A stretch of DNA of 64,000 nucleotides, from the NCBI GenBank assembly GCA_964617625.1, contig CAZTZL010000004.1, positions 11,009-75,008 on the forward strand, written 5' to 3'. Below the pieces are notes generated by a model. It searched no databases and was not told where the DNA came from. It saw nothing but the letters and a program-made list of their open reading frames with translations. The translations under genes and the position numbers were made by a program. Origin of the DNA: an uncultured bacterium. Lineage in GTDB: Bacteria; Zhuqueibacterota; QNDG01; DSAB01. Shown piece after piece: positions 6,229 to 27,958 of the stretch. How positions within the stretch are numbered: the first letter of the stretch is position 1; every line of letters begins with the position of its first letter.

Positions 6229-7793
6229 AAAGACCCTCCTTTATTTATCGATTTTGCCAATTCAGCTTTTTCATCTTTGTTTAGATATTGTCTTTTTATT
6301 TTATCTCTTTGTATGCGTCCAGCGATATCTCTTGGAAATGAGGAAACAAAATGGATTTCTTTCGGACATTTATAATTCGCCATTCGTTCTTTGATATATG
6401 TCAATATCTCTTCTTCCGTCGCCTGTTCATCTTTCTTCAAAACAACAAATGCATGTATTTCTTCACCGTGTACTCTATCCTCAATCCCAACAACCACTGC
6501 TTCCTCGATTTTTGGAAAACCGGTTAAAAACCGTTCGACCTCTTTCGGATAAATACTGAAACCTCCCTTCATGATTACATTTTTCTTCCTCGCTTCGATA
6601 AAAGCGAATCCACTCTCATCTACGCGTGCGAGATCACCTGTTCGTAGCCAGCCATCCCTGATGACCTCTTTAGTCGCTTCGGGCCGATTGAGATACCCTT
6701 TCATCACATTCGGGCCGCGAACCAGAATTTCTCCCACCTCTCCTGTTCGAACTTCCCTGTCATTTTCATCCACAATCCTGATTTCAACTCCGGGAAGCGG
6801 TAATCCAATCGATCCTGCATGCCGGTTCTGAGTCGAATCATTGAACGAAACCATCGGGGAAGCCTCGGTCAATCCATATCCCTCAATTATTGTCGTTTTA
6901 AATTTTGATTCAAACCTTTCGATGATCTCCTGTTTCAATGAATCTCCGTTGGACAAACAATATTTAAGAGAACTCGTGTCTATTTCATCCATGGATTCAA
7001 CTTCCAATAAGGCTCTTATCATTGAAGGAACACAGATTATATAAGTCGGTTTATTGGCATGAATACAATGGAGAATGTGGCCGGCCTCATAATTTAATTC
7101 GAGAATGATTTTCGCTCCCACATACATGAATGTCGAAAGAGAAAGTGTAAAACCGAGAGGATGATACAGAGGAATCGAGCTTAACACACTGTCGTGAGAA
7201 TCGAGTTTGAGCAACTGTGAACAGGCTGTGATATTGGAACTGATGTTCTGATGGGTCAATTCGGCCCCTTTTGGCCTTCCCGTCGTACCGGCTGTATATA
7301 CAATGAGTGCCGTATCGTCCTGGGATAAATCTGCCGATTCCAAAAGAGGCTCGTTGTTTTCGATTAAATAATTGAGCCTGACTTCACCGGGTTGTGCTTT
7401 ATCGCCCAAGACAATGAGATTTCTGCAATGTTCCAGATTCTGAACAGCCTGCGCGACGTTTGAGCGGAATCCCTCCCAATATATGATTCCCTTAACTTCA
7501 GAATCCTCGAGCTGATGATGTATTTCCTCGGTTTTATAGAGTGTTGACACCGGGATCATAGAAATCCCCAGTTTGAGGAGTGCAAAATAACTGATCGGGA
7601 AATGAGGTACATTGGGCAGCATCACAGCAACACGGTCACCGGCTTTCAATCCCAGATTCTTGATTCCTGAAGCCAGTCTATCCGCCGCATTTTTTAATTT
7701 TTGATAAGATATTTGATGTGACTGAAAAACCAACGCAATATCATCGGGATAATGATTAGCAGCATCTTCTAAAATTTGATATAATAAACTCAC
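6225..7793 (-). CDS. AMP-dependent synthetase / long-chain fatty-acid--CoA ligase
   Basis: AMP-binding motif YTAGTTGRPKGAELTH and an adenylate-forming domain architecture. Confidence 0.85.
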   Translation of the reverse strand: MSLLYQILEDAANHYPDDIALVFQSHQISYQKLKNAADRLASGIKNLGLKAGDRVAVMLPNVPHFPISYFALLKLGISMIPVSTLYKTEEIHHQLEDSEVKGIIYWEGFRSNVAQAVQNLEHCRNLIVLGDKAQPGEVRLNYLIENNEPLLESADLSQDDTALIVYTAGTTGRPKGAELTHQNISSNITACSQLLKLDSHDSVLSSIPLYHPLGFTLSLSTFMYVGAKIILELNYEAGHILHCIHANKPTYIICVPSMIRALLEVESMDEIDTSSLKYCLSNGDSLKQEIIERFESKFKTTIIEGYGLTEASPMVSFNDSTQNRHAGSIGLPLPGVEIRIVDENDREVRTGEVGEILVRGPNVMKGYLNRPEATKEVIRDGWLRTGDLARVDESGFAFIEARKKNVIMKGGFSIYPKEVERFLTGFPKIEEAVVVGIEDRVHGEEIHAFVVLKKDEQATEEEILTYIKERMANYKCPKEIHFVSSFPRDIAGRIQRDKIKRQYLNKDEKAELAKSINKGGSL

Positions 7794-8692
7794 CGGAGCG
7801 CTCCTTTACATTTCGCCGCCATATCCTCTGCATGATACGAACTTCGCACCCTTGGTCCCGATTGAACCTGCTGAAATCCCATACGAATCGCTACTTCACG
7901 ATATGATTCAAATACTTCAGGATGAATGTATTCCTGAACGGGAGGGCTTGTTCTGCTCGGAGCAAGATATTGACCAATCGTCAGCGCATCACAATCAGCT
8001 TCCCTTAATTTCTCAAAAACACATAATACTTCATCCCAGGTTTCACCCAGACCCACCATCAGTCCTGATTTGGTTATGATTTGCGGTTTAATCGATTTAG
8101 CAATTTTCAACACCGATAGAGAGCGATTAAATTCTGCTTGAGGACGTATGAATGAATAGAGGCTGGGAACCGTTTCCACATTATGATTCAGCACATAGAC
8201 ACCGGATGCGATAACCGTTCTTAAACTCTCTTCGTTTCCCTGAAAATCCGGTACAAGTGTTTCGACGGTAGCTTTTGGAATTTTGCTTTTAATCTGCCGA
8301 ACTGTTTTCGCAAATTGATCGGCACCCCCATCTTTCAGATCATCCCTTGTAACCGAAGTGATAACAATGTGAATCAAATCAAGCACTTTTACAATTTCTC
8401 CGATTCTCCTGGGTTCATCCGTATCAACAGGAAGAGGAACTCCCTGCGAAACATTGCAGAACCTGCAGCCTCGCGTACAAACATCACCTAAAATCATTAA
8501 AGTGGCAGTCTGTTTTTTAAAACATTCCGTTATATTCGGACAGGATGCGGATTGACATACGGTATGAAGGCGATATGTCTGTAATATTTTTTTAAACTGA
8601 AGAATAGATTCATCCTCTCGTTTTTGAGTTCGCAGCCATTCCGGCAAGCGAAGTCTTTGATTTGAGGATCTTTCTGTTTTAAATTCGACCAT
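7790..8692 (-). CDS. lipA: Lipoyl synthase
   Basis: CPNITEC plus the CTRGCRFCNV radical-SAM cysteine motifs, over a LipA-length protein. Confidence 0.9.
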   Translation of the reverse strand: MVEFKTERSSNQRLRLPEWLRTQKREDESILQFKKILQTYRLHTVCQSASCPNITECFKKQTATLMILGDVCTRGCRFCNVSQGVPLPVDTDEPRRIGEIVKVLDLIHIVITSVTRDDLKDGGADQFAKTVRQIKSKIPKATVETLVPDFQGNEESLRTVIASGVYVLNHNVETVPSLYSFIRPQAEFNRSLSVLKIAKSIKPQIITKSGLMVGLGETWDEVLCVFEKLREADCDALTIGQYLAPSRTSPPVQEYIHPEVFESYREVAIRMGFQQVQSGPRVRSSYHAEDMAAKCKGALR

Positions 8693-8784
8693 AAGCTAAT
8701 TATTTTAACAAAACTTTTTTATATAATCAAGCGCTTTTTAGTTAAATATTTTATCAGTTTTCATAACAAGGGATTGAAATTAAG

Positions 8785-8807
8785 AAAGCCCCCGATACGG
8801 GGGCTTT
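8785..8807 (-). terminator. Intrinsic terminator hairpin after the ferritin-like gene
   Basis: aaagcccccg-ata-cgggggcttt forms a 10 bp GC-rich stem, followed on the minus strand by a T-rich tract. It lies 53 bp after the stop at 8860. Confidence 0.55.
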
Positions 8808-8859
8808 CAACCAGCAGGAATAACAAATGATTTCTTTAATTTCCAATGGACCGCTTTAT

Positions 8860-9366
8860 TCAGGGACCGACATGAATCATATCATACTGAAAGTCATCCC
8901 GGTCATAATACATTTCATCTCTTTGGCACAACTCCAATTCTCCCTTTAAAAGAAAGTAATGCCCATGTTCCATGCTCGCCAGATATTGTAAGATTTCCTG
9001 GACACCGCGATCTTCGATCTCTTCAGAAAGGGTGTCATAAAACTCTTCTGACACTTTTTCCAATTCAACTGCCATTTCAAGCAGATCAGGAACCAATGTT
9101 TCCTCAGACAAAGCCAAATCCAGTCTCGGAACAAGGGATTTTTCTGCCGGAGATATTTCTTTCCCGTTAAACATTTTCTTATACATTGCTTCCAGCAATT
9201 TTTGATGTTTCTTTTCTTCATTAATTAAAAATTGAAGTTTGTCCTTTAATACAAAATTTTTCACCTGCTTTTTTAATTTCTTATAAGTCTCTTCTGCTTC
9301 AATCTCTGACTTATATGCAACAGATAAAGCTTTTTCGTTCGTCAAAGAAGAAACATCTACTGACAT
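8860..9366 (-). CDS. Ferritin-like / erythrin-type diiron four-helix-bundle protein (rubrerythrin-family, no rubredoxin domain)
   Basis: Two E...ExxH half-sites (EIEAEE...EEKKHQK, and ELEKVSEE...MEHGH). 168 aa and predicted helical. Confidence 0.55.
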   Translation of the reverse strand: MSVDVSSLTNEKALSVAYKSEIEAEETYKKLKKQVKNFVLKDKLQFLINEEKKHQKLLEAMYKKMFNGKEISPAEKSLVPRLDLALSEETLVPDLLEMAVELEKVSEEFYDTLSEEIEDRGVQEILQYLASMEHGHYFLLKGELELCQRDEMYYDRDDFQYDMIHVGP

Positions 9367-9685
9367 TTTTTTATCCTCCTATCTTAGTTTCTATCATTTT
9401 GTGAATTTCAATTTGTATCACAAAAACACAAAATCCAAATTGCACATAAATGTCGAATCATAAAATTCAAATTAAATGTTGTGATGATAGCTGTCAGTGT
9501 ATACAAATATTCTCTTTTCCTTAAATATCTATTCATAGTTAAGATAACGCATCAAATAGAATATCATCTAAACTACGCCAATGGATAGTTTTGATATTTG
9601 GCATTTGTGCTTTATTTGGATTTTGGTTTTTATTATATGAAATTTCAAAAAAACGTTACCTATTTCAATCTTTACAAAACTGTTA

Positions 9686-10177
9686 TTAGATATTCATTTC
9701 AGATTTTAGTCGGTTGATTCTCCGGATATGGTCGCGTTCCTCTTCGATAATCTGCTCAATAACACCATGGTCTTTCTTTTGAGTTACGTGAATCATTTCA
9801 TGGTAAAACAGGATGGAATCTTTTTCCATACTCATTGCGATTCGGACAGCAACGGAAGGATCGCTTAATTCAGTCTTCATATGTTTTCCTTCATGCCTGG
9901 ATGGAAATATTTTTTGTCCGATGAGTGATCGGAAATAACGTGTGACTTCGCTGTCATCAAAAGGAGTCCCCTCGCCAACCGATTCGATTTCCTGAAGCAT
10001 TTTCCGAAATGTCTTTTCGTGTTTCACTTCTTCATCTGATAAAAATTGAAAGACAGATTTTGTTTTTCCATCTTTGACGGCCTGGACAACCTCGTCATAA
10101 AACGCTTTTCCAGTTTTTTCAATTTCAATCGCCATTTTTAAAATTTCTCCTCCGGCGTATTTTAGTTCCATAAACAT
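9686..10177 (-). CDS. Rubrerythrin-family diiron protein (erythrin domain only)
   Basis: Diiron ligand motifs EIEKTGKAFYDE...EEVKHEK and MEKDSILFYHEM...EEERDH. Confidence 0.6.
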   Translation of the reverse strand: MFMELKYAGGEILKMAIEIEKTGKAFYDEVVQAVKDGKTKSVFQFLSDEEVKHEKTFRKMLQEIESVGEGTPFDDSEVTRYFRSLIGQKIFPSRHEGKHMKTELSDPSVAVRIAMSMEKDSILFYHEMIHVTQKKDHGVIEQIIEEERDHIRRINRLKSEMNI

Positions 10178-10185
10178 CTCCTTTT

Positions 10186-11034
10186 TTATTTCCCGTTTTT
10201 CAGTGAATGCAATAAATTCAAATTATTTTTATAAGATTCCATATCGCCGGGTGTTTCGAGAACCATTGGATGGTTTTCGAACCGGATATCGTTAATCAGC
10301 AGATGAAAAGCTTCAAGACCGAGGAATCCCTTTCCGATATGCTCATGCCGGTCAAGACGGCTGCTCAGGCTGCTTTTCGAATCGTTTAAATGAAATACTT
10401 TCAGTTTCTCCAAACCGATTGTTTTATCAAATTGTTTAAAAGTCGCTTGATAGCTTTTTAAATCCCTGAAATCGTATCCCGATGCAAATACATGGGCCGT
10501 ATCAAAACAGACGCCCAATTGGTCCTTTTTTTCTACTTGCGAAATAATCGTTCCCAATTGTTCAAACTGATAACCGATGTGACTGCCCTGTCCTGATGTG
10601 GTTTCCAATAACAATTGGACCTGTTTACCTGTTACTTTTTCAAGAATCCGGTTCAGACTTTCTGAGATTCTCAGAATACCTTCCCGCTCCCCTGTTCCCT
10701 TGTGTGATCCGGGATGAAATACGAGATAAGGAACGCCTAAAAGCTCTGAGCGATTTATTTCATCTATAAACGCTTCCCTGGACTTTTTCAATCCTTCCCG
10801 ATCCGGGCTGGCCAGATTAATCAGGTAAGAATCGTGAATGATAACCTGCCGTACTGAAGATTGCCTGTATCTTTGCTGAAAAATTCGGCATTTTTCTTTC
10901 GAAATAGGAGCGCTTTTCCACTGTTTTTGATTTCTGCTGAATATCTGAACTGCTTCGCATTGCAGCTCTTCTCCTCTTTGAAAACACGTTTCCAGTCCGC
11001 CGCCAATGGAAATGTGTGCGCCCAGCAGTCCCAT
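10186..11034 (-). CDS. nfo: Deoxyribonuclease IV (endonuclease IV, AP endonuclease)
   Basis: Xylose-isomerase-like TIM barrel with the Nfo motifs GAHISIGGG, HDSYLINLASPD, LVFHPGSH, CFDTAHVFASGYD and HLNDSK. Confidence 0.9.
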   Translation of the reverse strand: MGLLGAHISIGGGLETCFQRGEELQCEAVQIFSRNQKQWKSAPISKEKCRIFQQRYRQSSVRQVIIHDSYLINLASPDREGLKKSREAFIDEINRSELLGVPYLVFHPGSHKGTGEREGILRISESLNRILEKVTGKQVQLLLETTSGQGSHIGYQFEQLGTIISQVEKKDQLGVCFDTAHVFASGYDFRDLKSYQATFKQFDKTIGLEKLKVFHLNDSKSSLSSRLDRHEHIGKGFLGLEAFHLLINDIRFENHPMVLETPGDMESYKNNLNLLHSLKNGK

Positions 11035-11057
11035 TCCAGTCCCGCTTTTGTCAGTAT

Positions 11058-11453
11058 TTAGATGACTTTTATTACTTTTTCAGACTGCCACAGACCATGA
11101 ATATTACATAAAGAAAGCGCCTGCAACGTGCCAGATTTTCCCAATTTTACTGACGCCGCAATTTCATGATGGGTATACACAGATCCTTTATTGGGACCTT
11201 CGACGGACTCTCCATGTGATGTAAACTCAAAATGACCAACCTGAAATGGAAATTTGTCTCCGTCCGCATGGAAATATAATGAAATCCAACGGATGTGATG
11301 TTCTGTCGTATTGGGATGTGCAATTTCTTTTCCAATACCTACTTTGACCTGAAATAATTCTCCATTTTTGACTTGATCCGGGCATTCAATAACAGGAACA
11401 TGTTTTTCTTCTTTCCAATTTGCCTCATGAACAAGTTCTGTAATCTTGGACAT
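11058..11453 (-). CDS. Superoxide reductase (desulfoferrodoxin / neelaredoxin family)
   Basis: EKHVPVIE, HPNTTEHHIRWI, and a C-terminal CNIHGLW iron-site motif. Confidence 0.85.
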   Translation of the reverse strand: MSKITELVHEANWKEEKHVPVIECPDQVKNGELFQVKVGIGKEIAHPNTTEHHIRWISLYFHADGDKFPFQVGHFEFTSHGESVEGPNKGSVYTHHEIAASVKLGKSGTLQALSLCNIHGLWQSEKVIKVI

Positions 11454-11471
11454 GATATATCCTCCTCTTTT

Positions 11472-13004
11472 CTATGCATTTTCATTGGGCAATGTAAAAT
11501 AAAATGTGGACCCCTTGCCCAATTCTGACTCGGTCCATATATTTCCATCGTGAAATTCCACAATTTTTTTGCACATGGCAAGACCTATACCCGTTCCCGG
11601 ATATTGTTCCCAGTTGTGCAGTCGTTTAAAAATCATAAAGATACGGTCTGCATATTTATTGTCAAAACCAATACCATTATCTTTTATTGAAAAAAGCCAT
11701 TCTCCATCTTTTTGTTGTACCTGTATATCGATTACCAAATCTTCTTCGCCTCTGAACTTGATTGCATTATCGATTAAATTACCGAACAAGCGCATTAATT
11801 GCTGTGCGTCTCCAGTGACTTTCGGAATCGTATTACAGCAATGAATCCTGGCTTTACTCGCGGAAATCTCTTCTTTCAAATTGCCGAGAACCACATTTAG
11901 AATATATTGACAGTCCACTTCTTCAAAAATTTTATTATGACTGCCCAGTCTTGAATATACCAGCAGATCATTGAGTAATCGTTTCATCCGTTTTGCAGCG
12001 CTGACAGCATAATGAATAAACTCATTGGCATCTGCATCCAGTTTTCCCTGATATCGTTTTTCCAGCATCTGAACATAACTCGCCACGATGCGAAGCGGTT
12101 CCTGTAAATCATGAAAGGCAACATAGGCAAACTGTTCCTGTTCAGCGTTGGTATGTTTTAGCTGGTTTGCAGTCTCTTCCAGTTCTTTTGCCGTTTTTTC
12201 CAGTCGTTCCTGAGCTAGTTTTTCTTCCGTGATATCTCTTGAAACACCAATAATACCCATGACCTGATTGTTCTGGTCCCTCATAGGGACCTTGGTGGCC
12301 GTAACCCATCGTATTCGGCCGTCCGCCCTTTCTATTTGTTCTAATTTCGATATAAGAGGCTGATCCGTTTTGATCAAATTTTGTTCATCATCAAATGCTT
12401 TCTGGGCCTGTTCTTTCGGGAAATAATCAAAATCGGTTTTCCCAATAGCCTCATCAGGATTGGCAATGCCCAATACTTCTGCCTGGGCCATATTGATGCG
12501 AATGAAACGGGATTGTTTGTCCTTGAAATAGATCGTATCCGGAATGTTTTTCATCAGGGCATTGATGAGATCCCGTTCATGTTGAGATATATCTACAATT
12601 TGCTTCCGTTCAATCGCATACCGGATGGATCGCAAGAGCAGATATCCGCTGACTTCCCCTTTGAACAGGTAATCCTGAGCGCCTTCCCGAACCGCCTGAA
12701 CGGCAACACCCTCATCCCTGAGACCGCTTAATACAATGATCGGAATATGAGGTGCCGCCTGATAGGCCTTATAAAACGTATCCAATCCTGTACTATCGGG
12801 TAAAGAGAGATCGAGTAATAGAATATCAATACTCTTTTCCCGCAGTTTTTCCAAACCTGTGGATAATTGCTCAGCCCAGATCAGTTCAATTCTTTTTACC
12901 GAAGAATCATTGGAGGCCCCTTCTTTCAACAATTCCTCCAATAATCGTGCGTCTCCGGGATTATCTTCGATGAGAAGAATATTCAGAATTTCATCCTGAT
13001 TCAT
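11472..13004 (-). CDS. Receiver-PAS-histidine kinase (N-terminal REC domain fused to a sensor kinase)
   Basis: REC domain (LLIEDNPGDARLL...LLDLSLPD), a PAS domain, an H-box AFHDLQEPLR, and a HATPase_c domain (NLIDNAIKF, DNGIGF, GTGIGLAM). Confidence 0.85.
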   Translation of the reverse strand: MNQDEILNILLIEDNPGDARLLEELLKEGASNDSSVKRIELIWAEQLSTGLEKLREKSIDILLLDLSLPDSTGLDTFYKAYQAAPHIPIIVLSGLRDEGVAVQAVREGAQDYLFKGEVSGYLLLRSIRYAIERKQIVDISQHERDLINALMKNIPDTIYFKDKQSRFIRINMAQAEVLGIANPDEAIGKTDFDYFPKEQAQKAFDDEQNLIKTDQPLISKLEQIERADGRIRWVTATKVPMRDQNNQVMGIIGVSRDITEEKLAQERLEKTAKELEETANQLKHTNAEQEQFAYVAFHDLQEPLRIVASYVQMLEKRYQGKLDADANEFIHYAVSAAKRMKRLLNDLLVYSRLGSHNKIFEEVDCQYILNVVLGNLKEEISASKARIHCCNTIPKVTGDAQQLMRLFGNLIDNAIKFRGEEDLVIDIQVQQKDGEWLFSIKDNGIGFDNKYADRIFMIFKRLHNWEQYPGTGIGLAMCKKIVEFHDGNIWTESELGKGSTFYFTLPNENA

Positions 13005-13045
13005 GACCCGCTCTGACTCCTCTTGATATATGTCTTTCAGAAAAA

Positions 13046-13062
13046 TTATCTTTAAAAGATAA
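13046..13062. promoter_or_regulatory. Perfect 17 bp palindrome TTATCTTT-a-AAAGATAA; candidate Fur/PerR-type operator
   Basis: 8-1-8 inverted repeat with GATAA / TTATC terminal hexamers. It sits about 42 bp upstream of the REC-HK start (13004) and about 135 bp after the bcp stop. Confidence 0.3.
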
Positions 13063-13197
13063 CAAAGACAGTAGGTCCAATAATATTTTTAATTTCAGAC
13101 CGCATTTTCGCACTACAACCACTCAGGTTTCAAAACATGTGATCAAACTTGTGAGTAAAATCGAAAGCCTGATTGTTCTGATATTCGTTTCAACTAT

Positions 13198-13680
13198 TTA
13201 CAGTCGATTGTTTTGTATTGCCTTGATTTTCTCCAGCACGATATCAATATGTCCGGGAACATTAACTTTTCTCCAAACAGACACAATCTTTCCACTCGGA
13301 TCAATCAAAAATGTACTTCTTTCAACACCAAAGTATTCCTTGCCATACATTTTCTTTTTGATCCAAACAGCGTATTTATCCATTACTTCGTGGTTTTCAT
13401 CGCTGAGAAGCTTCACTTTAAGATTGTGCCTATCCCGAAAATTACAATGGCTCTTCGGTGAGTCAGGGCTGACACCGATAACAACTGCTTTCAATTTTAT
13501 AAAAGCATCAATTGATTTCGAAAAATCAATGGCTTCGAGTGTACATCCGCTGGTATTGTCTTTCGGATAGAAATAGAGGACGACCCATTGGCCTTTAAAA
13601 TCTTTTAGGCAAACCCGCTTTTCGTTGGCATCCGGCAGACAAAAGGAGAAAGCGGCTTCTCCTTTTTTTGGCAGAGTCAT
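13198..13680 (-). CDS. bcp: Thiol peroxidase / peroxiredoxin of the Bcp type
   Basis: FYPKDNTSGCTLEA peroxidatic-cysteine motif in a thioredoxin fold. Confidence 0.85.
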   Translation of the reverse strand: MTLPKKGEAAFSFCLPDANEKRVCLKDFKGQWVVLYFYPKDNTSGCTLEAIDFSKSIDAFIKLKAVVIGVSPDSPKSHCNFRDRHNLKVKLLSDENHEVMDKYAVWIKKKMYGKEYFGVERSTFLIDPSGKIVSVWRKVNVPGHIDIVLEKIKAIQNNRL

Positions 13681-13691
13681 AACGACACCTC

Positions 13692-14207
13692 TTATTCTTC
13701 ACCTTTTAATTCGGAATGAAATGCTCTTTTCCCAAGTTCCCTGTCCAGCATAAACAATCCGCCTCCTGATTCGCCGACCATCTTGAGCTTGTCCAAAATT
13801 TCATGATCGTTGGCTTCTTCTTCAACCTGTTCGGTCACAAACCACTGAAGAAATATTTGCGTGGCATGATCGTTTTCTTTTAAAGATAGATCAACAAGAT
13901 CATTGATGCTCTTGGTGACAAATTGTTCATGAGCAAGGGTTTTCTCGAACATATCAACAGGCGATTTGTAATCGGTTTGCGGCTTTTCGATTGCCTGAAG
14001 TTTCACTTGCGCACCCTGTCCATGCAAATATTTGTAAATCCGCATGGCGTGTTCATTCTCTTCCTGATATTGGACCATAAACCAGTTGGCAAATCCACTC
14101 AGACCTGTATGTTCGCTATAGGCAGCCATCGAAAGATAAATATAAGCAGAATACATTTCTTTATTAATTTGAACATTTAAGGCTTCTGCAATTTTTTTAC
14201 TCAGCAT
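13692..14207 (-). CDS. ftnA: Non-haem ferritin
   Basis: Ferritin ferroxidase-centre residues (E..Y, EENEHA, QWFVTEQVEEE) in a 171 aa protein. Confidence 0.85.
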   Translation of the reverse strand: MLSKKIAEALNVQINKEMYSAYIYLSMAAYSEHTGLSGFANWFMVQYQEENEHAMRIYKYLHGQGAQVKLQAIEKPQTDYKSPVDMFEKTLAHEQFVTKSINDLVDLSLKENDHATQIFLQWFVTEQVEEEANDHEILDKLKMVGESGGGLFMLDRELGKRAFHSELKGEE

Positions 14208-14271
14208 ATATTATTCTCCTTTTCTAATTTGTTTTAACACAAAAAAGATGTCCCATCCTTAACTTTTTGAT

Positions 14272-14430
14272 TTACTGCTTTTCAAATTCATCCTTGCCAG
14301 CACCGCATTCCGGGCATACCCAGTCATCGGGAATTTTTTCAAACGGTGTCCCCGGAGCCACATCGTTATCGGGATCGCCCACAGCAGGATCATACACATA
14401 ACCGCATATTTTACAAACCCACTTTTCCAT
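14272..14430 (-). CDS. Rubredoxin (52 aa); below the ORF-track size cutoff
   Basis: Reverse-complement translation gives [52 protein letters not shown], which is canonical rubredoxin with two CxxCG knuckles. A GGAGGTG ribosome-binding site lies upstream. Confidence 0.8.
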
Positions 14431-14509
14431 AGTACGCACCTCCTTCTGTTAGTTGTAAATTAATTGTATTTTTAAATCAACTGTTTATGAAGAATCGATC
14501 GTCCACCCT

Positions 14510-15727
14510 TTATGGATTTAATTTTTCCGGTGTATATCCGACATTTCTAATTGCTTTTTCAACAGATTCGGCAGACACATTTCCGTTTACACCAACTATT
14601 TTTTTACCAAGATCCACGACCACTTTTTCTACTCCTGGAATAGATTCAACAGCATTTTTTACAGTCATTTGGCAATGCTTACAGGTCATATCTTTTACGG
14701 ACAATTCCAGTTTCATATCCGCCACTTCCTTTCTTGTATGAATCAAACCGCGAAGAATGAGAACCAACAGAACCGCTCCTGAAGTAATCGTCACAACAGG
14801 TGGAATCATTTTCGAATGATGATGAACAAACGCAATATCTCCGCCCAGACGGAACCACAACAGATTAAACAGCCACCCAACAACAAGGGAGACAATTATG
14901 ATTGAGCTTAAATAAAAATAAAATGCTTTTTTCCCAAGTTTGGACCATACAAACGATAATGTGACTGTGTTTGTGGCCGGTCCTGCAATGAGGAAGACCA
15001 GAGCGGCTCCTGGAGCAAATCCTTTCTGGATGAGTGCGGCCGCAATAGGAATCGAACCCGTCGCACAGACATAGAGCGGAATAGCAATAACGAGCATGAT
15101 AATAAAATGAATCCAGGGATTTGAAAAATGGCTCAGAATCAAATCCTCGGGGATAACCGCTGTCAAAATTCCACCGATGACCACACCGAAGAGAAGCCAT
15201 TTACCAATATCACCTGCCAGTTCAATGAAACCATACTGAAAGACTTCCCTGAATCTGAACTTTGTCGATAATTTTTCATGGGTATGCGTATGATGTATAA
15301 CTGTTTTTTCCGGATTGAAAACAGCATCAAGGAATCCGATCAGAAGACCGGATAAAAACGCTGCAATGGGCCTGAAAACAGCAAACAAAGGACCCATTAA
15401 TGAATAGGTAGCAGCAATGGAGTCCACACCCGTGGTCGGTGTTGAAATGAGGAATGCGAGCGTAGCACTTCGGTTTGCTCCTTCCCTTCGTAATGAAGCC
15501 GCAACCGGAATCACGCCGCAGGAGCACAGCGGCAACGGAATGCCAAGAATGGTGGCTTTCAGGATTGATGAAAATCTCCCTCCACCGAGATGATGCGCTA
15601 TAAAATCCGATCCTAAAAAAGCATGCAATATCCCGGCGACAAATAACCCGAGCAATAGATAGGGTGCCACTGCAAGCCAGAGATCGACGGAAGCTTTCAG
15701 GATATTGTACAATAAATCGATTATCAT
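14510..15727 (-). CDS. Metal permease of the PF03773 / ArsP-like family with a C-terminal heavy-metal-associated (HMA) domain; resembles SO_0444-type Cu/Zn transporters
   Basis: Polytopic membrane protein with a conserved PLCSCG motif, a His-rich loop (HHTHTH) and a C-terminal MTCKHCQMTVKNAVESIPGV HMA fold. Confidence 0.7.
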   Translation of the reverse strand: MIIDLLYNILKASVDLWLAVAPYLLLGLFVAGILHAFLGSDFIAHHLGGGRFSSILKATILGIPLPLCSCGVIPVAASLRREGANRSATLAFLISTPTTGVDSIAATYSLMGPLFAVFRPIAAFLSGLLIGFLDAVFNPEKTVIHHTHTHEKLSTKFRFREVFQYGFIELAGDIGKWLLFGVVIGGILTAVIPEDLILSHFSNPWIHFIIMLVIAIPLYVCATGSIPIAAALIQKGFAPGAALVFLIAGPATNTVTLSFVWSKLGKKAFYFYLSSIIIVSLVVGWLFNLLWFRLGGDIAFVHHHSKMIPPVVTITSGAVLLVLILRGLIHTRKEVADMKLELSVKDMTCKHCQMTVKNAVESIPGVEKVVVDLGKKIVGVNGNVSAESVEKAIRNVGYTPEKLNP

Positions 15728-15736
15728 TGAAAACCT

Positions 15737-16240
15737 TTAGAATTTTACAAATTTATCTTTTGAAACACCGCAAACCGGACAATTATCGGGAACATCGCCT
15801 GATACCGTATATCCACAGACAGGACAAATATAAATATCGTTCATTTCGATATCTTTCCCCTGTTTTACGAATTCTCTGGCTTCCGAATACATGGCCGAAT
15901 GAATTTTCTCCGCTTCGATGGCGTAGTGAATCGAACGGATGGCCTCTTTTTCTGTCTGAAGTTTCGCCACGGCATCATAGGCCGGGTACATCTCTTCCAC
16001 CTCAAAATTCTCTCCGTCTATGGCGGATTGAAGGTTTTCGCTTGTATCTCCCAGATCTCCGAGTGCTTTCAAATGATTGGTTGCATGCACCTGTTCGGCA
16101 AATGATATGGCTTTGAACAACCGGGCAATATTGGATTTACCCTCACTTTCCGCTTTTTTGGAAAAAGCAAAATATTTCATATGAGCTTGACTTTCGCCTG
16201 CGAATGCGTCTTTTAAGTTCTTTTCTGTCATTTTCTTCAT
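15737..16240 (-). CDS. rbr: Rubrerythrin (erythrin domain plus C-terminal rubredoxin-like domain)
   Basis: Diiron motifs (ESQAHMKY, EQVHA, EAEKIHSAMY) and a C-terminal CPVCG...CPVCG domain. Confidence 0.9.
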   Translation of the reverse strand: MKKMTEKNLKDAFAGESQAHMKYFAFSKKAESEGKSNIARLFKAISFAEQVHATNHLKALGDLGDTSENLQSAIDGENFEVEEMYPAYDAVAKLQTEKEAIRSIHYAIEAEKIHSAMYSEAREFVKQGKDIEMNDIYICPVCGYTVSGDVPDNCPVCGVSKDKFVKF

Positions 16241-16275
16241 TCTTTATACCTCCTGAATTGATTTCGTATAAAAAA

Positions 16276-17040
16276 TCAAAATTCAAAAAACCGGTGTATT
16301 GTAAACCCAAAATGTAAATCATTCGAATCTGCACCCTGCATTAATATCCGATTGCCGAGTCCATAACTATTACTCAGAAGAAAATGAAACTGATGGCCAT
16401 ACGTCAGCATTTTGAGTCCAAATGCAAAAATATTATTGCGATCTTTTAGATCCGAATTGAGTATAGGATAGTATTCACCTATAAAATGCAGGTTTTTAGT
16501 TAACTGAATATCCCCTCCAAGACCCAATCCAAGATTTTCATTATAACCATCATAACCCAAATTAATTACAGGCGTTAAGCGGTTGAACAAAGGTTCTATA
16601 CGGGATACCATTTGGAAAAACATATGATACTTCCGACAATTGATCGCCTGCTCGAAAGAAAAATACTCGGCTTCGACTTGAAACTGGAAAATCCGAATAG
16701 GAAATGGAATTTTATACTGAATGCCCAGAGAATACGCCTTCAATGGAGAATTAAAAACGTAGGATCCCGAAATACCGATTCCGCTTCCCACGAAAACTCG
16801 CAGCCCAAGTCCCGGATTAGCGCCTCCCTGCATTCCGAAAAATGTTTCGAGTGGCTTTTCAGTTGCTACACCATAAAAACGATGTACAATGGTAAATTGC
16901 ATCTGACGTGCCTCAAGATCCGAAGGCACACTCAGATTCAGCATGGCGTATTTTTCATAAGCAAAAATGAAACCAGGCAAAGCTGTTAATACAATTAAAA
17001 GAAAATTACTTTTTTTCCGTATCATCCCAAACTCCCACAA
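16276..17040 (-). CDS. Outer-membrane beta-barrel protein, DUF5777-like
   Basis: N-terminal signal peptide, alternating amphipathic beta-strand pattern, and a C-terminal aromatic residue (...HRFFEF). The family assignment is from memory. Confidence 0.45.
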   Translation of the reverse strand: MWEFGMIRKKSNFLLIVLTALPGFIFAYEKYAMLNLSVPSDLEARQMQFTIVHRFYGVATEKPLETFFGMQGGANPGLGLRVFVGSGIGISGSYVFNSPLKAYSLGIQYKIPFPIRIFQFQVEAEYFSFEQAINCRKYHMFFQMVSRIEPLFNRLTPVINLGYDGYNENLGLGLGGDIQLTKNLHFIGEYYPILNSDLKDRNNIFAFGLKMLTYGHQFHFLLSNSYGLGNRILMQGADSNDLHFGFTIHRFFEF

Positions 17041-17048
17041 TTAGTGGA

Positions 17049-17471
17049 TTACTCCGACTGAACTGTGATTTTGACTTTTTTCTTTCCATATATACTGCAT
17101 TGCGCAGTCACAGTAATCTCGTCCCCCGTCTTTGCGCCAGGAATTAAATAGGTAGCTTTCTGCTCATCCGGATTCAATTGGATTGCAAACGTCTGCTGAA
17201 TGATCTCATTGCCATTGAGCTGAACGACAATCTTACCAATCCGATGCTTCACCACATCTTTTGTGTTATGTACAGCTACAACAGTCAAAATATGATCCTG
17301 CAGATTAAAATTGAGATCGACTTTACTTGGTGGATGAGCAAAAGCAATTTGGACAAACAAGAATGAAAAAAGCATAACGGATAAAATTGATTTTATTTTC
17401 AACGGAAGGGCCCTCCATTTGTTAGATGCATAAAATATTAACGAAATTAAAATAAAAAGTTTCCAATTCAT
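17049..17471 (-). CDS. Small secreted protein whose predicted mature N-terminus is a histidine (AFA|HPPSK); possible CopC-like metal-binding beta-sandwich
   Basis: Long N-terminal hydrophobic leader with an AXA cleavage site, leaving a mature chain of about 105 aa that starts HPPSKVDLNF. Its start overlaps the Rieske gene stop by 4 nt (ATGA coupling). Confidence 0.4.
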   Translation of the reverse strand: MNWKLFILISLIFYASNKWRALPLKIKSILSVMLFSFLFVQIAFAHPPSKVDLNFNLQDHILTVVAVHNTKDVVKHRIGKIVVQLNGNEIIQQTFAIQLNPDEQKATYLIPGAKTGDEITVTAQCSIYGKKKVKITVQSE

Positions 17472-17932
17472 GAATCGAGATGGAGTATAATCTGATTACT
17501 TTCTAAAGTCGCCAGGATTTCTTCCAGCGGAAAAGGAGCCGGACCGCTTACATTATCACCAGATAGATTGTATCGAGAGCCATGCCCGCAGGGACCGGAA
17601 CAGACCATGATGCCATTCACAGGCAGATCGATTTCACAGCCGGCATGCGTACAGCGGCTCGAAAAAGCAACCGTTTCTGTTTCGGAAATTCGAATAACGA
17701 TAACAGGCAGTGCATATCCCGGCACGTCATCAAATTTTAAAGCACCATTTACCGAATTTAATACTTGATTGTCCGATTGATTCAGATCGATAACATAATT
17801 GTTTTCATTTTGATTTGATTGCATGGGACATGTTTTATCTTTACTGCAGGACGATATCAACTGCCCTATCCCGGTTATACCGATGGCCACCGAGCACGAT
17901 TGTTTTAAAAATCTTCTTCTTTCCATAATCAT
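17468..17932 (-). CDS. Tat-exported Rieske [2Fe-2S] lipoprotein
   Basis: Twin-arginine motif RRRFLK, lipobox LISSC, Rieske box I CTHAGC and box II CSGPCGHGS. Confidence 0.75.
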   Translation of the reverse strand: MIMERRRFLKQSCSVAIGITGIGQLISSCSKDKTCPMQSNQNENNYVIDLNQSDNQVLNSVNGALKFDDVPGYALPVIVIRISETETVAFSSRCTHAGCEIDLPVNGIMVCSGPCGHGSRYNLSGDNVSGPAPFPLEEILATLESNQIILHLDS

Positions 17933-17960
17933 TCCTTAAAAAAGGATAATGACGAATATG

Positions 17961-18365
17961 TTATTTGGAGTGATCGCATTCCGAACAAATGCCCTGAAAT
18001 TCAAGAAAATGATTATGAATGCGATATCCTGTTAATTTCTCGATTTCATCGATCGATACACGCGGTGAAATATGAGGCACATCTTCTACTTTTCCACAGA
18101 CCGTGCAGCGCACATGATAATGATCCCGCAGATCGCCGTCGTAACATCTTAATCCCTTGCCAATGTTCAATTCCTGAATCTTGCCTTCATCCCGTAATAA
18201 ACTCAGATTCCGGTAAACGGTACCGAGACTGATATTGGCCATTTGCTTTCGGGCCATTTCGAAAATACGATCAGCCGTAGGGTGGCAGTGTGTCGACCGA
18301 ATGACACGAAGCACAAGATTACGCTGGCGGCTTGATTTCAATTTTCTCTCTTGTTTGATCGACAT
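17961..18365 (-). CDS. Fur-family transcriptional regulator (PerR-like by genomic context)
   Basis: Fur fold with a winged HTH, metal-site HHH-type residues (DHYHVRCTVCG) and a C-terminal CSEC. It sits at the head of the oxidative-stress cluster. Confidence 0.85.
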   Translation of the reverse strand: MSIKQERKLKSSRQRNLVLRVIRSTHCHPTADRIFEMARKQMANISLGTVYRNLSLLRDEGKIQELNIGKGLRCYDGDLRDHYHVRCTVCGKVEDVPHISPRVSIDEIEKLTGYRIHNHFLEFQGICSECDHSK

Positions 18366-18385
18366 TTATAAGCCATAATAATAAT

Positions 18386-18400
18386 AGGAACTATTCCTAA
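18386..18400. promoter_or_regulatory. Inverted repeat TAGGAA-cta-TTCCTA immediately upstream of the fur-family gene; candidate autoregulatory operator (or a weak terminator for the symporter)
   Basis: Perfect 6-3-6 inverted repeat, 21 to 35 bp upstream of the start at 18365, inside an 80 bp AT-rich intergenic region. Confidence 0.3.
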
Positions 18401-18445
18401 TATAAATGATTTATTGTGAATGTCAAGTGTTTTCCATTTAGCCGG

Positions 18446-19924
18446 CTATTTATTATTTGTTTTAAAAATCTTTTCCAGGCTCTCCTTGCTCTGTTTTTTG
18501 GTCAGCAGACTGACAACGATAAGCATAAATACAGAAACAATTAATGCAGGATAAATACTTGGAATTCCCCATGGGTCCCCTCCTTTTAACACGCCTGGCC
18601 ACAAAGCTGGTATTAATATTTCTAAAATTAATGCCAGTAATGCTCCTGATAAAATGGAAGCCAGGCCTCCCGCTTTTGTTGCTCTCTTCCAGGCAAGCGC
18701 TGCAATGAGTGCCGGCGTAATCGAAACACCGTACATTGTATAGGCAAAATAACTGTATCTTAATACGGATATTGGTTTTTTTAATATTGTTGGTATAAAT
18801 ATCATTAAAAAAGCACATATCCCCAAAAGAATCACAACAACTTTCTGAATGATAACTAATTGTTTATCTTTTATTTCCTTCTTCCGGAATGCCTGGATAA
18901 TATCTCTGACCACATTCGTACTCGGAGACAATAAATAATTCATTCCTGTTGAAATAACGACGGCACAGGCAGCTGCCAATAAAAGAATTCCGACTGGCGC
19001 AGGAACCATATACCTTGCTGCAACAAGCACCATAGAGGCTGGATCATATCCCTGATTCCAGAATTTCGATGCGGCAAACACGGCAATCACCACAACGACA
19101 GTTTCTACAAAAATTGTTCCGACAATCCACAAAGCAACTGCCTGTTTTGCATCTTTGGGCGTCTTGGCGCTGTAAAACTTCTGATACATCGATTGAACAC
19201 CCATGAGAAGCATCATGGTTGCCAGAAAATATCCGAAAGCTTTTAATGCAGGATGCGCACCGAAATCTTCACTGAATACCTGGAAATGCCCGGCAGGCAG
19301 TGCCTTAACGGCCTGCGACAATCCACCCGCATTGATGATTACAAACGGCGTTGCCAGAATACATGCTGCTACTATTATGATGCCGTTCGGTAGATCCGTA
19401 TAAGCTACCGCCATCATTCCCGCAAGCGCAGTGAAAGTAATTACAAAAAACGCGCTGAGCGCCTGTCCCAATTCGACTGATATTCTCCCATCCGTAATCA
19501 CATTAAGAATATAACCGCCAGCTCTGAACTGATAACTGACAATAGTTACAAATGCAATAATCAATGCGATCGCCCCAAAAACTCTCGCAAATTTTCCGTA
19601 TCGTACTTCTAAAATATCTCCAATAGTGTACTGACCGAATGTTCTTATTTTCCCGGCAAGAAAATATATAATGATGATTCCAACCCATGCTCCTGCAGGC
19701 ATCCAAATCGAACTGAATCCTGCTTTGTAAGCGTATTCCGCACCGGCAATGAATGTTCCGGAACCGATCCATGTGCATATCAAAGTAAAAACCATGACAC
19801 GGATCGATAACGATCGTCCCGCCACCATAAAGTCGTCGTGGCTTTTGACCCGCCTGGATCGAATAATATTGAATGCCATCAGGACAAGGACATAGGCTAA
19901 AATGATATAAAGATACCAGTGCAT
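18446..19924 (-). CDS. Sodium:solute symporter family transporter
   Basis: About 13 TM helices and an SSF signature region (GRSLSIRVMVFTLICTWIGSGTFIAGAEYAY). Confidence 0.85.
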   Translation of the reverse strand: MHWYLYIILAYVLVLMAFNIIRSRRVKSHDDFMVAGRSLSIRVMVFTLICTWIGSGTFIAGAEYAYKAGFSSIWMPAGAWVGIIIIYFLAGKIRTFGQYTIGDILEVRYGKFARVFGAIALIIAFVTIVSYQFRAGGYILNVITDGRISVELGQALSAFFVITFTALAGMMAVAYTDLPNGIIIVAACILATPFVIINAGGLSQAVKALPAGHFQVFSEDFGAHPALKAFGYFLATMMLLMGVQSMYQKFYSAKTPKDAKQAVALWIVGTIFVETVVVVIAVFAASKFWNQGYDPASMVLVAARYMVPAPVGILLLAAACAVVISTGMNYLLSPSTNVVRDIIQAFRKKEIKDKQLVIIQKVVVILLGICAFLMIFIPTILKKPISVLRYSYFAYTMYGVSITPALIAALAWKRATKAGGLASILSGALLALILEILIPALWPGVLKGGDPWGIPSIYPALIVSVFMLIVVSLLTKKQSKESLEKIFKTNNK

Positions 19925-25645: not shown

Positions 25646-27958
25646 TCATCTTAATAAAATCATTTTACGGCTGTATGAACCAGGTCCGATTTCTAATCGA
25701 TAGATATAAATACCAGAGGAACAAATACGGCTGTTTGAATCCTGACCTGACCATTCCACCCTGTACTGCCCCGGAGCTTGCACTTCCTTTTCAATTTTTT
25801 GAACCACACGTCCCTGGATGTCATAGATTTGAATGACTGCTTTTCTGTTTAAACGTCCTGTTTTTTCAGGGACATTGAATCGAATAACCGTTGTTTGATT
25901 GAATGGATTGGGATAATTTTGCCACAGATCAAACGATTCCGGGATAAATTCACTCGCTTCTTCTTCTTCAACATCAGTTTTTAAAACCGCACGGTAGATA
26001 TCGAGTTTGCCGTATCCCCACTGATCATCCCAGTAATATTGCTCGCCGGCGTGCCCGGTATTCGCATCTCTTTTTGCGGATGAGATAATCCAGTTTTTAA
26101 CGATTGAAATCGATGTATCCGGAAAAGACTCAAAAAGAAGCGCCACTGCACCAGTCACATGAGGCGCAGCCATGCTCGTTCCATGCAATGCCCAGTGGAC
26201 GCTGTCCGTGGCAATATATTGATTACCAGGCCATGATGTCTGATCCGACAAAGAAGATAGAATGTATTCTCCCGGTGCGGTAATTTCCGGTTTACTGGGA
26301 GGATTCGATTGGGTGGAATTAGGACGTGTCGGACCCTGGCTGGAAAATGAAGAACGCTGTCCTGCAGTAAGCCCGCCGGGACCCCATGGATTTTGAGACA
26401 GACTCGGCCAATTGATGCGCGAGACATAGGATCCAACTGTAAGAACGCGATTCGCATTTCCGGGCTCTGCGATGAGTGTCGAATAATCCACGCCCTGTGT
26501 GATTCTGGCCGTAACGGATCTATCATACATCCATCCGTCAAAACGTCCCCACTTGCCTACAAAGATCAGCTTCCAGATACCTGTCTCGAAATTCTGGATC
26601 GCACCGCCGTTCTGGGTATCGGATAAATGGATATAAATTTCTTTATCACCATTGGAATGCTCGGTATCTTCATCATCGTTTTGCACATGAATCATGGGCA
26701 TTCCGGCCTGCGGCCAAAAAAGAATCTCCCCTGCATCGACCGTATCGAGACGCGTGTGACTTGGCGTTTCAACAATCAATTTCAAACCCAGTGCGGAAGT
26801 GTACCAGATATCGAAATAGAGATCGTTCCTTGTTTCCGATTCATTGGTTTCGACTTCGAATTCAATGACAACCGAATCCCATACCGTCGAATACATTTCT
26901 CCTTTAAAATGGATCGGATCATCCCCTTCGTTGCCGGCCGCCGTGACAATGGCCCGTCCATCTTCATTCAAGAAATTGGTTAAGCTTCTTTCGTACAAAC
27001 TCGTCCCGTCGTGAGACCCGTGATGCGTTCCTCCGACGCTCAGATTGATTGCCACCGGACGAGATGGATCAAATGCTTCCGCTTTTTGAAAAATATAGTT
27101 GATGCCGTCAACAATACGATCATTGTCATAAACACCATCCCCACCCTTAACGATAATCAGATCCGCTCTGGGAGCTACGCCGACATAAACCTCAGAAGGT
27201 TTGTCATTGCCTGCCCCCCTGCCGTTCCCCGCAGCAATTCCGGCAACGTGTGTGCCGTGTCCCGTCCTGTCCCTGCCCTGGACCAATCCTGCGGGCGTAC
27301 CGTCGATTTCGTTATTGATCTGTTCCTGCGTGTATTCAGTGCCGTATCCAAAAGATGTCGTTCCGGTGTCTGTATTATCAGTCTGGTCCCAAAGAAAGAG
27401 AATTCTCGAATCATTCGAGTTATCGATAAAATCGGGATGGGTCCAGTCGATCCCCGAATCATAAATCCCAATAATGACGCCTTCTCCCTGCCGGGGAACA
27501 CCCAAATAGCCGGCCCAAACAGAATCCGCGCCAATTTCGTGAATACTGACATCCAGAGCAGCCTTGCACCTTGAGACCGATTCGATCCGAATCACAGAAG
27601 GCAACGCCGCAACTGTCCACAATTGAACCGGTGTTAATGTTGCTGTGACCACATCTCCAATTTCAGAATGAGTCCGGACACCGGCTGATTTCAGTTCTGC
27701 AATATCGGTCGTCTGAATAAACACATCAATATAAATCCGGTTCCCCTCTTCTTTAAGATCCGGATTATAAAACTGTTCAGGATATTTTTCGGACAATGTG
27801 ACCAGTTCGCTTAAAACAGGATCAAGTTTTTGAAACAAATACCGCTCTTGGCCATATCCATCATTCAAACTGAAAATGAAAACAGCGAATAATAAAAACC
27901 GGTATTGTTTTTTTCTCACCTGCTTCATAATCCTCTCAATCGATTCTGCTCTGTTCAC
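25646..27958 (-). CDS. S8-family subtilisin-like serine peptidase with a T9SS C-terminal sorting domain
   Basis: Catalytic triad motifs D(YDSGID), HGTHVAG and GTSMAAPHV. The C-terminal LWQNYPNPFN...IYDIQGR...GIYIYR is the Por secretion tail. The likely true start is the Met at 27928 (MKQVRKK... signal peptide), which removes the apparent overlap with xerD. Confidence 0.85.
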   Translation of the reverse strand: MNRAESIERIMKQVRKKQYRFLLFAVFIFSLNDGYGQERYLFQKLDPVLSELVTLSEKYPEQFYNPDLKEEGNRIYIDVFIQTTDIAELKSAGVRTHSEIGDVVTATLTPVQLWTVAALPSVIRIESVSRCKAALDVSIHEIGADSVWAGYLGVPRQGEGVIIGIYDSGIDWTHPDFIDNSNDSRILFLWDQTDNTDTGTTSFGYGTEYTQEQINNEIDGTPAGLVQGRDRTGHGTHVAGIAAGNGRGAGNDKPSEVYVGVAPRADLIIVKGGDGVYDNDRIVDGINYIFQKAEAFDPSRPVAINLSVGGTHHGSHDGTSLYERSLTNFLNEDGRAIVTAAGNEGDDPIHFKGEMYSTVWDSVVIEFEVETNESETRNDLYFDIWYTSALGLKLIVETPSHTRLDTVDAGEILFWPQAGMPMIHVQNDDEDTEHSNGDKEIYIHLSDTQNGGAIQNFETGIWKLIFVGKWGRFDGWMYDRSVTARITQGVDYSTLIAEPGNANRVLTVGSYVSRINWPSLSQNPWGPGGLTAGQRSSFSSQGPTRPNSTQSNPPSKPEITAPGEYILSSLSDQTSWPGNQYIATDSVHWALHGTSMAAPHVTGAVALLFESFPDTSISIVKNWIISSAKRDANTGHAGEQYYWDDQWGYGKLDIYRAVLKTDVEEEEASEFIPESFDLWQNYPNPFNQTTVIRFNVPEKTGRLNRKAVIQIYDIQGRVVQKIEKEVQAPGQYRVEWSGQDSNSRICSSGIYIYRLEIGPGSYSRKMILLR

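Follow-up and report, generated by a model that had tools for sequence, protein, structure and literature searches.

Strict anaerobes are thought to handle oxygen radicals in the cytoplasm by means of superoxide reductase (SOR), rubrerythrin and rubredoxin, and protection of the periplasm is largely open; superoxide is unable to cross the inner membrane, and quinol autoxidation produces superoxide there. The PerR regulons of anaerobes such as Clostridium and Desulfovibrio comprise rubrerythrin, rubredoxin, SOR and Bcp, and we know of no PerR regulon that holds an exported Rieske lipoprotein, a SOR-like secreted protein and an outer-membrane barrel. Here we analysed a 64,000-nucleotide stretch of DNA (hereafter the window; contig CAZTZL010000004.1) from an uncultured bacterium of the Zhuqueibacterota, whose minus strand carries four co-directional genes for a Fur-family regulator, a Rieske lipoprotein, a small secreted protein and a beta-barrel of the family DUF5777. 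Export signals were found on the last three proteins, whose genes lie directly behind the regulator and before a cytoplasmic set of genes against reactive oxygen species (ROS). With a confidence just short of even, we read the region as the envelope arm of a PerR-type oxidative-stress operon, in which the three proteins would form an extracytoplasmic electron-transfer module reducing ROS. An earlier note on this DNA (hereafter the original prediction) had named no described system of this composition as known to its author, and no description of the module was found in the literature on DUF5777, on periplasmic or secreted SOR, or on PerR together with a Rieske lipoprotein; DUF5777 itself had no mention in the literature searched.

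The closest described protein is the 1Fe SOR, or neelaredoxin (PF01880; PDB 4d7p, 6gq8). Its seven-stranded Ig-like sandwich is common to the predicted structure of the small protein, with ligand-type residues at equivalent places (a His before strand 1, two His in the loop between strands 2 and 3, a Cys in the last hairpin), and both proteins occur in oxidative-stress operons of anaerobes near rubredoxin and rubrerythrin. Unlike the 1Fe SOR, the small protein is predicted to be Sec-exported, has its first His as the mature N-terminus and is paired with an outer-membrane barrel; moreover, the His-His spacing is x7 instead of the x5 of SOR. Extracytoplasmic SORs are represented by the TAT-SOR class of SORGOdb, which is bioinformatically defined and predicted to be extracytoplasmic (PMC3116461), and by the 'periplasmic SOR' of Sulfurimonas pluma (PMC10066037). 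As with the small protein, these are predicted extracytoplasmic superoxide-reducing proteins of anaerobes or microaerophiles; TAT-SORs, however, are full-length and canonical, with all ligands, and are exported folded via Tat, whereas proteins of the small-protein family carry a Sec signal and have an altered site, and the family, which is far larger and lacks annotation, is linked to DUF5777.

In the histidine-brace copper proteins (CopC, YcnI/DUF1775, LPMO, PmoB), cleavage leaves a His as residue 1, whose amine and imidazole can chelate one metal. These too are small beta-sandwich periplasmic proteins with His as residue 1, but no sequence relationship to them is detectable, the small protein adds an invariant Cys and two His, and its genomic context consists of redox proteins, while theirs consists of cop genes. 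At the level of gene clusters, MtrCAB and the CYBDOM/DOMON-cytochrome b561 chains resemble the DUF5777 clusters in bringing together an outer-membrane barrel, redox proteins of the periplasm or surface and a cytochrome b in the membrane (DUF4405 or NOX-like in the DUF5777 clusters). In contrast to MtrCAB, the DUF5777 barrel has ~230 residues against ~650 in MtrB, its clusters contain no multiheme cytochromes, the cofactors would be centres of Rieske, DOMON and SOR-like type, and the hosts are fermentative anaerobes, with oxidative stress as the setting. Finally, the PerR regulons of anaerobes and the window operon have in common an apparently autoregulated Fur-family repressor, a 7-1-7 AT-rich box and equal cytoplasmic detoxification genes.

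The small secreted protein and its predicted fold

The small protein of the window matched no Pfam or NCBIfam family, and the original prediction had left it uncharacterised. It is no orphan: an exhaustive profile search placed it in a very large family of predicted SOR-like fold, in which E<=1e-3 gathered 1,210 clusters (representatives at 50% identity) and E<=1e-10 gathered 490, the names on which are 'hypothetical protein' only. The best 150 of the 1,210 clusters are mostly of 105-135 aa (range 99-181), each aligning as a single stretch. Across 53 diverse members the invariant positions are H23, H45, H53, Q75, C102 and G106, and no other; in all of these members H23 is the first residue past an AxA-type signal-peptidase site, and in the window protein cleavage of a Sec-type signal is predicted at AFA/HPP (a slash here and below marks the cleavage site).

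Modelling by AlphaFold2 with a deep alignment gave a seven-strand sandwich (pLDDT 94.7) having the SOR-type Ig-like fold. When this model was compared with the PDB by Foldseek, the top match was the Giardia 1Fe-SOR (4d7p; E 8e-4, TM 0.69), and SORs from Archaeoglobus and Ignicoccus were also among the matches. In the predicted strand order H23 is N-terminal, the B-C loop carries H45 and H53, the C'-E loop carries Q75 and the F-G hairpin carries C102, so that in the model all five residues gather at one pole of the sandwich, at the topological positions of the SOR ligands. Among the 53 members, each scanned singly against Pfam, 16 matched PF01880 (Desulfoferrodoxin/SOR) at E<=0.01, with sampled scores of 16-21 bits against a cut-off of 22.2 and over profile positions 28-93 of 98. 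Considering the fold, these near-threshold profile matches and the ligand positions together, we take the small protein for a Sec-exported, divergent relative of the SOR iron domain, to be called a SOR-fold relative with a presumably remodelled site and not a SOR family member. The view of the original prediction that the classical ROS enzymes are all cytoplasmic is thus probably untrue here, the secreted small protein having a SOR-like fold.

SoxZ (PF08770; PDB 2ox5) was matched by seven of the 53 family members; the SoxZ subunit of SoxYZ has no conserved metal-type ligands and has SoxY as its partner, and sox genes do not lie near the small protein. The small-protein family profile was also run against PDB sequences, with noise matches alone (ribosomal uS8, BAG6), and this search was set aside.

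Conservation of the pair and its redox neighbours

To follow the genes in other genomes, barrel homologues were located on their contigs; an alignment of the barrel was then scanned against one genome per species, retrieving 38 loci, and the small protein alone was scanned against metagenomes, retrieving 14 loci. Open reading frames (ORFs) were called and then labelled with hidden Markov models built for the analysis, giving ~50 non-identical loci (designated L001 and following). The small-protein gene is directly followed by the barrel gene in 25 of them, and in 12 of the 14 loci retrieved via the small protein alone the barrel adjoins it. With gaps of ~4 to 50 bp, the order of the pair is kept at 30-45% identity in Cloacimonadota, WOR-3 and unclassified lineages. 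Nine loci have fur ahead of the pair, and ten, from several lineages, have rubrerythrin behind it, with rubredoxin, ferritin and Bcp following as well. The gene order of the window itself recurs in unrelated contigs at 38-45% protein identity, and is thus more than chance. Of the 25 entries with the pair, six have the Rieske gene ahead of it, or five after merging the near-duplicates L003 and L004. The trio put forward by the original prediction therefore stands insofar as its genes do co-occur elsewhere, but what is conserved as a unit is small protein plus barrel, the Rieske gene being an accessory outside this core.

Two kinds of operon carry the pair. Type A, to which the window operon belongs and which is present in several unclassified lineages at 38-45% identity, has the order PerR-like regulator, optional Rieske, small protein, barrel, rubrerythrin, rubredoxin, ferritin and Bcp. 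Type B, present in Cloacimonadota, WOR-3 and unclassified metagenome-assembled genomes (MAGs), has an optional DUF4405 protein, small protein, barrel and a DOMON protein of one to three repeats, two of these DOMON proteins bearing sorting tails of the type IX secretion system (T9SS). DUF4405 lies upstream of the pair in four Cloacimonadota loci. It has been established by experiment as a heme-b membrane cytochrome and proposed to carry electrons across the inner membrane (PMC11334425). Some loci differ in single genes: in L052 the barrel has shrunk to a remnant of ~48 codons (4848-4994) between an intact small-protein gene and rubrerythrin, which may reflect gene decay or a fault of the assembly; in L001 a ZIP metal transporter gene (10305-11069) stands between Bcp and the kinase, and in L003 a low-molecular-weight phosphatase/ArsC-like gene (10626-11048) follows the permease, neither of which is present in the window.

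It might be argued that the three genes are functionally unrelated passengers in a stress operon. The Rieske gene is dispensable in many operons and distant homologues of the small protein stand alone; yet the succession of small protein and barrel is kept at the distances and across the lineages given above, and in two operon backgrounds, and we regard this explanation as very improbable.

Periplasmic metal handling deserves more weight, although we still consider it unlikely. Here the small protein would be a metallochaperone or buffer for Cu (or Fe/Mn), the barrel a metal channel acting with the Cu/Zn efflux permease, and the Rieske protein would alter the redox state of the metal. The invariant His at the first mature position, as in the Cu sites of CopC, YcnI and LPMO type, would suit this role, as would the Sec-type signal, which implies metal loading in the periplasm. 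A SO_0444-family Cu/Zn efflux transporter with an HMA domain is encoded two genes downstream, genes for a ZIP transporter and for ferritin are found in related operons, and the regulator belongs to the Fur family. On the other hand, CopC (PF04234) and YcnI (PF07987) gave no match with the window protein at E<=0.1, nor were they among the families matched by its 53 relatives at E<=0.01, and no Pfam or NCBIfam match to PCuAC or CusF was found at E<=0.1. Furthermore, outside the window's own clade (window, L001, L048) and the L003 lineage the pair occurs without the permease, the other partners of the pair are electron carriers and not transporters, and ferritin and rubrerythrin under one repressor follow the logic of PerR and not that of an iron-starvation Fur. 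Where the original prediction had left the choice between a periplasmic electron-transfer and a metal (Cu/Fe) module, the evidence thus favours electron transfer, the metal option deriving mainly from the adjacent Cu/Zn permease.

The barrel has a signal peptide ending at IFA/YEK and the C-terminus HRFFEF, with F as the last residue. Its invariant polar residues include H48, R49, E184, Y185, H211 and R245; a crude amphipathicity scan revealed pervasive beta-type alternation, in which strands were not countable, and the barrel profile had no match among PDB sequences. The neighbours of the barrel at large include DOMON proteins of 1-5 repeats, some with T9SS tails, and three DOMON genes by the barrel (L023:6779-7591, L033:6721-7554 and L009:4492-5313) code for proteins with a T9SS C-terminal sorting domain, predicted to be surface-displayed. 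Barrels without the small protein also have redox genes beside them, among which are DOMON genes in 12 loci. In Aegiribacteria-like MAGs (L039:1798-5041 and L040:3992-7233), two DOMON lipoproteins and the barrel are followed by a 447-aa NOX-like membrane protein with Ferric_reduct, FAD and NAD domains, a set that would form a complete electron path from NAD(P)H to the envelope. In Sulfurimonas and other Campylobacterota (L041, L043, L044 and L045, ~4800-7300 in each) the barrel has a Lipoprotein_15-cytochrome c on one side and a cytochrome P460 homologue on the other, and in L006 a small cytochrome c adjoins it. What the neighbourhoods of DUF5777 have in common is small electron-transfer proteins outside the cytoplasm, and in this picture the window's Rieske lipoprotein takes the position that belongs elsewhere to DOMON and DUF4405. 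As separate observations, a two-component system adjoins the barrel and cytochrome genes in the four Campylobacterota loci, and in a Poribacteria MAG (L019:5453-5848) a 131-aa secreted protein encoded upstream of the barrel contains a CGTCH motif and has its match in Pfam Temptin_C, not in a cytochrome family.

These neighbourhoods also bear on the possibility of a trans-outer-membrane electron conduit, loosely like MtrCAB, in which DUF5777 would relay electrons between periplasmic carriers (SOR-like protein, Rieske, cytochrome c) and surface DOMON proteins, either reducing an extracellular acceptor (O2, Fe(III), radicals) or taking electrons up. The surface exposure implied by the sorting domains of some DOMON partners, the succession of DOMON, DOMON, barrel and NOX-like protein, the cytochrome b upstream in Cloacimonadota and the invariant His, Arg, Glu and Tyr of the barrel all speak for it. 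Against it, the barrel, at ~230 residues, lacks the size to enclose a protein and has no cofactor-binding motif known for it, no DOMON or DUF4405 gene lies within the 64 kb of the window, and multiheme cytochromes are absent. We consider a conduit of this kind quite unlikely.

Regulator, Rieske lipoprotein and layout of the cluster

When compared with NCBIfam, the regulator ranked the PerR models top, above those for Fur and Zur, and did not reach the PerR equivalog cut-offs (110.6 against 180 and 85.7 against 200 bits). Against a B. subtilis PerR sequence taken by us as the reference, it is 35% identical; in the same presumed alignment its H28, D76, H82, H84 and D95 correspond to PerR H37, D85, H91, H93 and D104, and its C87/C90/C127/C130 to the PerR Cys4 Zn site. 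The proposal of the original prediction that the genes are under Fur/PerR control is supported by the upstream region. A sigma-70-type promoter (18426..18399) is the best promoter-like site in the 10 kb from 8600 to 18600, with a TTGAC(A/T) element at the equivalent position in L001, L003, L057 and L059, and a 7-1-7 operator-like palindrome, TAGGAAtAGTTCCTA, overlaps the 3' edge of its -10 hexamer and extends downstream.

The operator consensus, TAGTAATnATTACTA, stands at the equivalent place upstream of fur in five other lineages (L001, L003/L053, L052, L057 and L059). Scanning with <=2 mismatches recovered four of those boxes; L041 and L060 each had a single stray match, the one in L060 ~2.2 kb upstream of the small-protein gene, and a fur gene was detected in neither of these two loci. 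Further copies within the window were none better than chance. The operator core GTAATnATTAC coincides with that of the B. subtilis Zur box, hence the box sequence alone is not decisive among PerR, Fur and Zur. The cluster is here treated as an autoregulated PerR-type operon, which, judging from regulator and box, would be induced by peroxide.

The Rieske protein carries the twin-arginine motif ERRRFLK followed by the lipobox LISS/C and is predicted to be a Tat-exported lipoprotein, a pattern also seen in its homologues of L001, L003 and L050. Its box I (C-x-H-x-G-C) is CTHAGC. Box II (17572-17598, minus strand) is CSGPCGHGS in the window and in L001, where a 3-residue insertion abolishes the usual C-x-x-H spacing; in more distant homologues it is canonical (CPCHDS in L050, CACHNS in L054, CPEHKS in L003). 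As searched against NCBIfam, the protein stayed below the cut-offs of known Rieske subunits (PetC 35.8 against 250, Rieske_proteo 28.8 against 97.4 and QcrA 18 against 275 bits) and had no match with the arsenite-oxidase small-subunit model at E<=0.1. The protein is therefore not PetA/PetC/QcrA, its scores of 18-36 bits facing cut-offs of 97-275; a known subunit such as PetA would have spoken against the original prediction.

All features of the cluster are listed in Table 1. The four genes of the families originally named were found as predicted, with both DUF5777 and Rieske above the Pfam gathering thresholds in profile searches, and so was their continuation into rubrerythrin, HMA permease, rubredoxin, ferritin, Bcp, REC-histidine kinase, SOR and Nfo, which were traced by Pfam or NCBIfam matches or, for kinase and Nfo, by ORFs with Pfam matches in the syntenic L001 genes. 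The gap of 28 bp between fur and Rieske was correctly given, while two gene starts had to be revised. The small protein had been described as 140 aa long, with a 4-nt ATGA overlap; this is the longest ORF only (ATG 17471). Since its homologues, as well as public gene calls, are all ~117 aa, and since a Shine-Dalgarno GGAGGG precedes TTG 17402 by 8 nt, the gene is assigned to 17402..17049, leaving a 65-bp gap, without overlap, after the Rieske stop. Likewise, the 8-bp gap reported before the barrel had been counted to TTG 17040; homologues start at the equivalent of ATG 17025 (MIRKK, 249 aa, as in the homologue P0001), which makes the gap 23 bp.

Table 1. Features of the gene cluster and its flanks, in positions of the window
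Feature	Position	Strand	Support
Sigma-70-type promoter TTGACA-16-TATATT, upstream of the regulator gene	18399..18426	-	11/12 matches
Fur-family operator-like 7-1-7 palindrome	18385..18399		Overlaps 3' edge of -10 hexamer, extends downstream
Fur-family regulator, PerR-like (134 aa)	17961..18365	-	PF01475 86.7 bits
Tat-signal Rieske [2Fe-2S] lipoprotein (152-154 aa)	17468..17932	-	PF00355 26.4 bits (cut-off 20.3)
Sec-secreted 117-aa protein of predicted SOR fold	17049..17402	-	Chain after predicted cleavage begins with the invariant His
DUF5777 outer-membrane beta-barrel (249 aa)	16276..17025	-	PF19089 63.7 bits (cut-off 23.1)
Rubrerythrin	15737..16240	-	PF02915 and PF21349
ArsP_1 permease with C-terminal HMA domain, SO_0444-family Cu/Zn efflux	14510..15727	-	NF033936 368.8 bits (cut-off 300); PF03773 and PF00403
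Rubredoxin	14272..14439	-	PF00301 89.5 bits
Ferritin	13692..14207	-	PF00210 149 bits
Bcp-type peroxiredoxin	13198..13680	-	PF00578 128 bits
REC-PAS-histidine kinase inside the cluster	11472..13004	-	ORF; syntenic 510-aa L001 gene has Response_reg, PAS, HisKA, HATPase_c
Canonical cytoplasmic 1Fe SOR	11058..11453	-	PF01880 118.6 bits
Endonuclease IV (Nfo)-like	10186..11034	-	ORF; syntenic L001 gene has PF01261
Two more rubrerythrin/ferritin-like genes	9686..10177 and 8860..9366	-	ORFs; syntenic L001 genes have PF02915
Strong intrinsic-terminator-like hairpin ending the cluster	8784..8808	-	11-bp stem, 8 G-C pairs, then T-rich tail

The kinase encoded inside the cluster is a REC-PAS-HisKA-HATPase hybrid with no cognate DNA-binding response regulator nearby, and its 3' end contains a second good promoter-like site, TTGACA-16-TATCTT (11665..11638), upstream of the SOR gene. 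Elsewhere in the window (25646-27958), a 770-aa subtilisin-like protease with a T9SS-type C-terminal tail (NYPNPFN) fits an organism of the FCB group, or a related one, with type IX secretion.

Proposed mechanism and significance

In the mechanism that we favour, signal-peptidase cleavage would make the first metal-ligand His the N-terminal residue of the small protein. This His1, by its imidazole and free amine, would bind one metal together with His45, His53 and Cys102, forming a mononuclear N4S-type site that resembles the His4Cys centre of SOR; the analogy with SOR would suggest Fe(II) as the metal, that with the histidine brace Cu. Such a centre would reduce superoxide or other ROS in the periplasm. 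The swapping of partners between lineages suggests the Rieske lipoprotein as the dedicated one-electron carrier in the window lineage, and in other phyla DUF4405 cytochrome b and DOMON heme proteins may supply the electrons in its place. The DUF5777 barrel, in the weakest step of the scheme, may serve all these small extracytoplasmic redox proteins as a common partner at the outer membrane, for docking, relay or substrate access.

Several points weigh against an ROS-reducing envelope module. The window small protein has no PF01880 match at E<=0.1, and no member of its family attains the Pfam cut-off. When the family was compared by hhalign with a shallow four-sequence SOR alignment, for which the canonical SOR of the window was the reference, H53 paired with the SOR ligand H52 and C102 with C116; the probability was ~1%, which is not significant, and this register, though the one expected, is suggestive only. 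The fifth SOR ligand, a His at Cys+3, is not conserved, position 105 being variable (Y/F/H/A/S/...), and the Glu-Lys of the SOR EKH motif, which lies before strand 1 and supplies the sixth-ligand Glu and the catalytic Lys, is absent, because the mature chain starts at its first His (AxA/HP). The non-canonical Rieske box II of the window's clade counts in the same direction. As for the genomic context, many pair-bearing operons have no electron-donor gene (L007, L013, L057-59), and very distant small-protein homologues stand alone (P0183, P0125, L060, L061). Finally, a protein exported by Sec as the apo-form might bind Cu or Zn instead of Fe, and to our knowledge every histidine brace binds Cu.

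A wider and bolder reading, which we hold to be rather unlikely, would make DUF5777 and the N-terminal-His SOR-fold family an unrecognised trans-envelope redox pathway, widespread in uncultured anaerobes. Electrons would pass via DUF4405/NOX-like cytochromes or Rieske to a new His-brace/Cys metal centre detoxifying superoxide or O2 in the periplasm or at the surface, with the barrel as an active relay or docking site and not a passive pore.

The module draws on known kinds, the SOR superfamily and the PerR regulon, and has a realistic chance of being a new envelope redox pathway. The locus offers a concrete, testable candidate for periplasmic radical defence in anaerobes. It draws attention to a large family (~1,200 clusters at 50% identity), entirely unannotated, with an unusual candidate metal site starting at an N-terminal His, and it gives DUF5777 a first functional context, as an outer-membrane protein that recurs as the partner of small redox proteins outside the cytoplasm (DOMON, cytochrome c, cytochrome P460, Rieske and SOR-like). 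If the proposed chemistry is true, the small protein would represent a new class of metal centre, and the module would give the PerR regulon an envelope branch in major lineages without cultured members, Cloacimonadota and WOR-3 among them.

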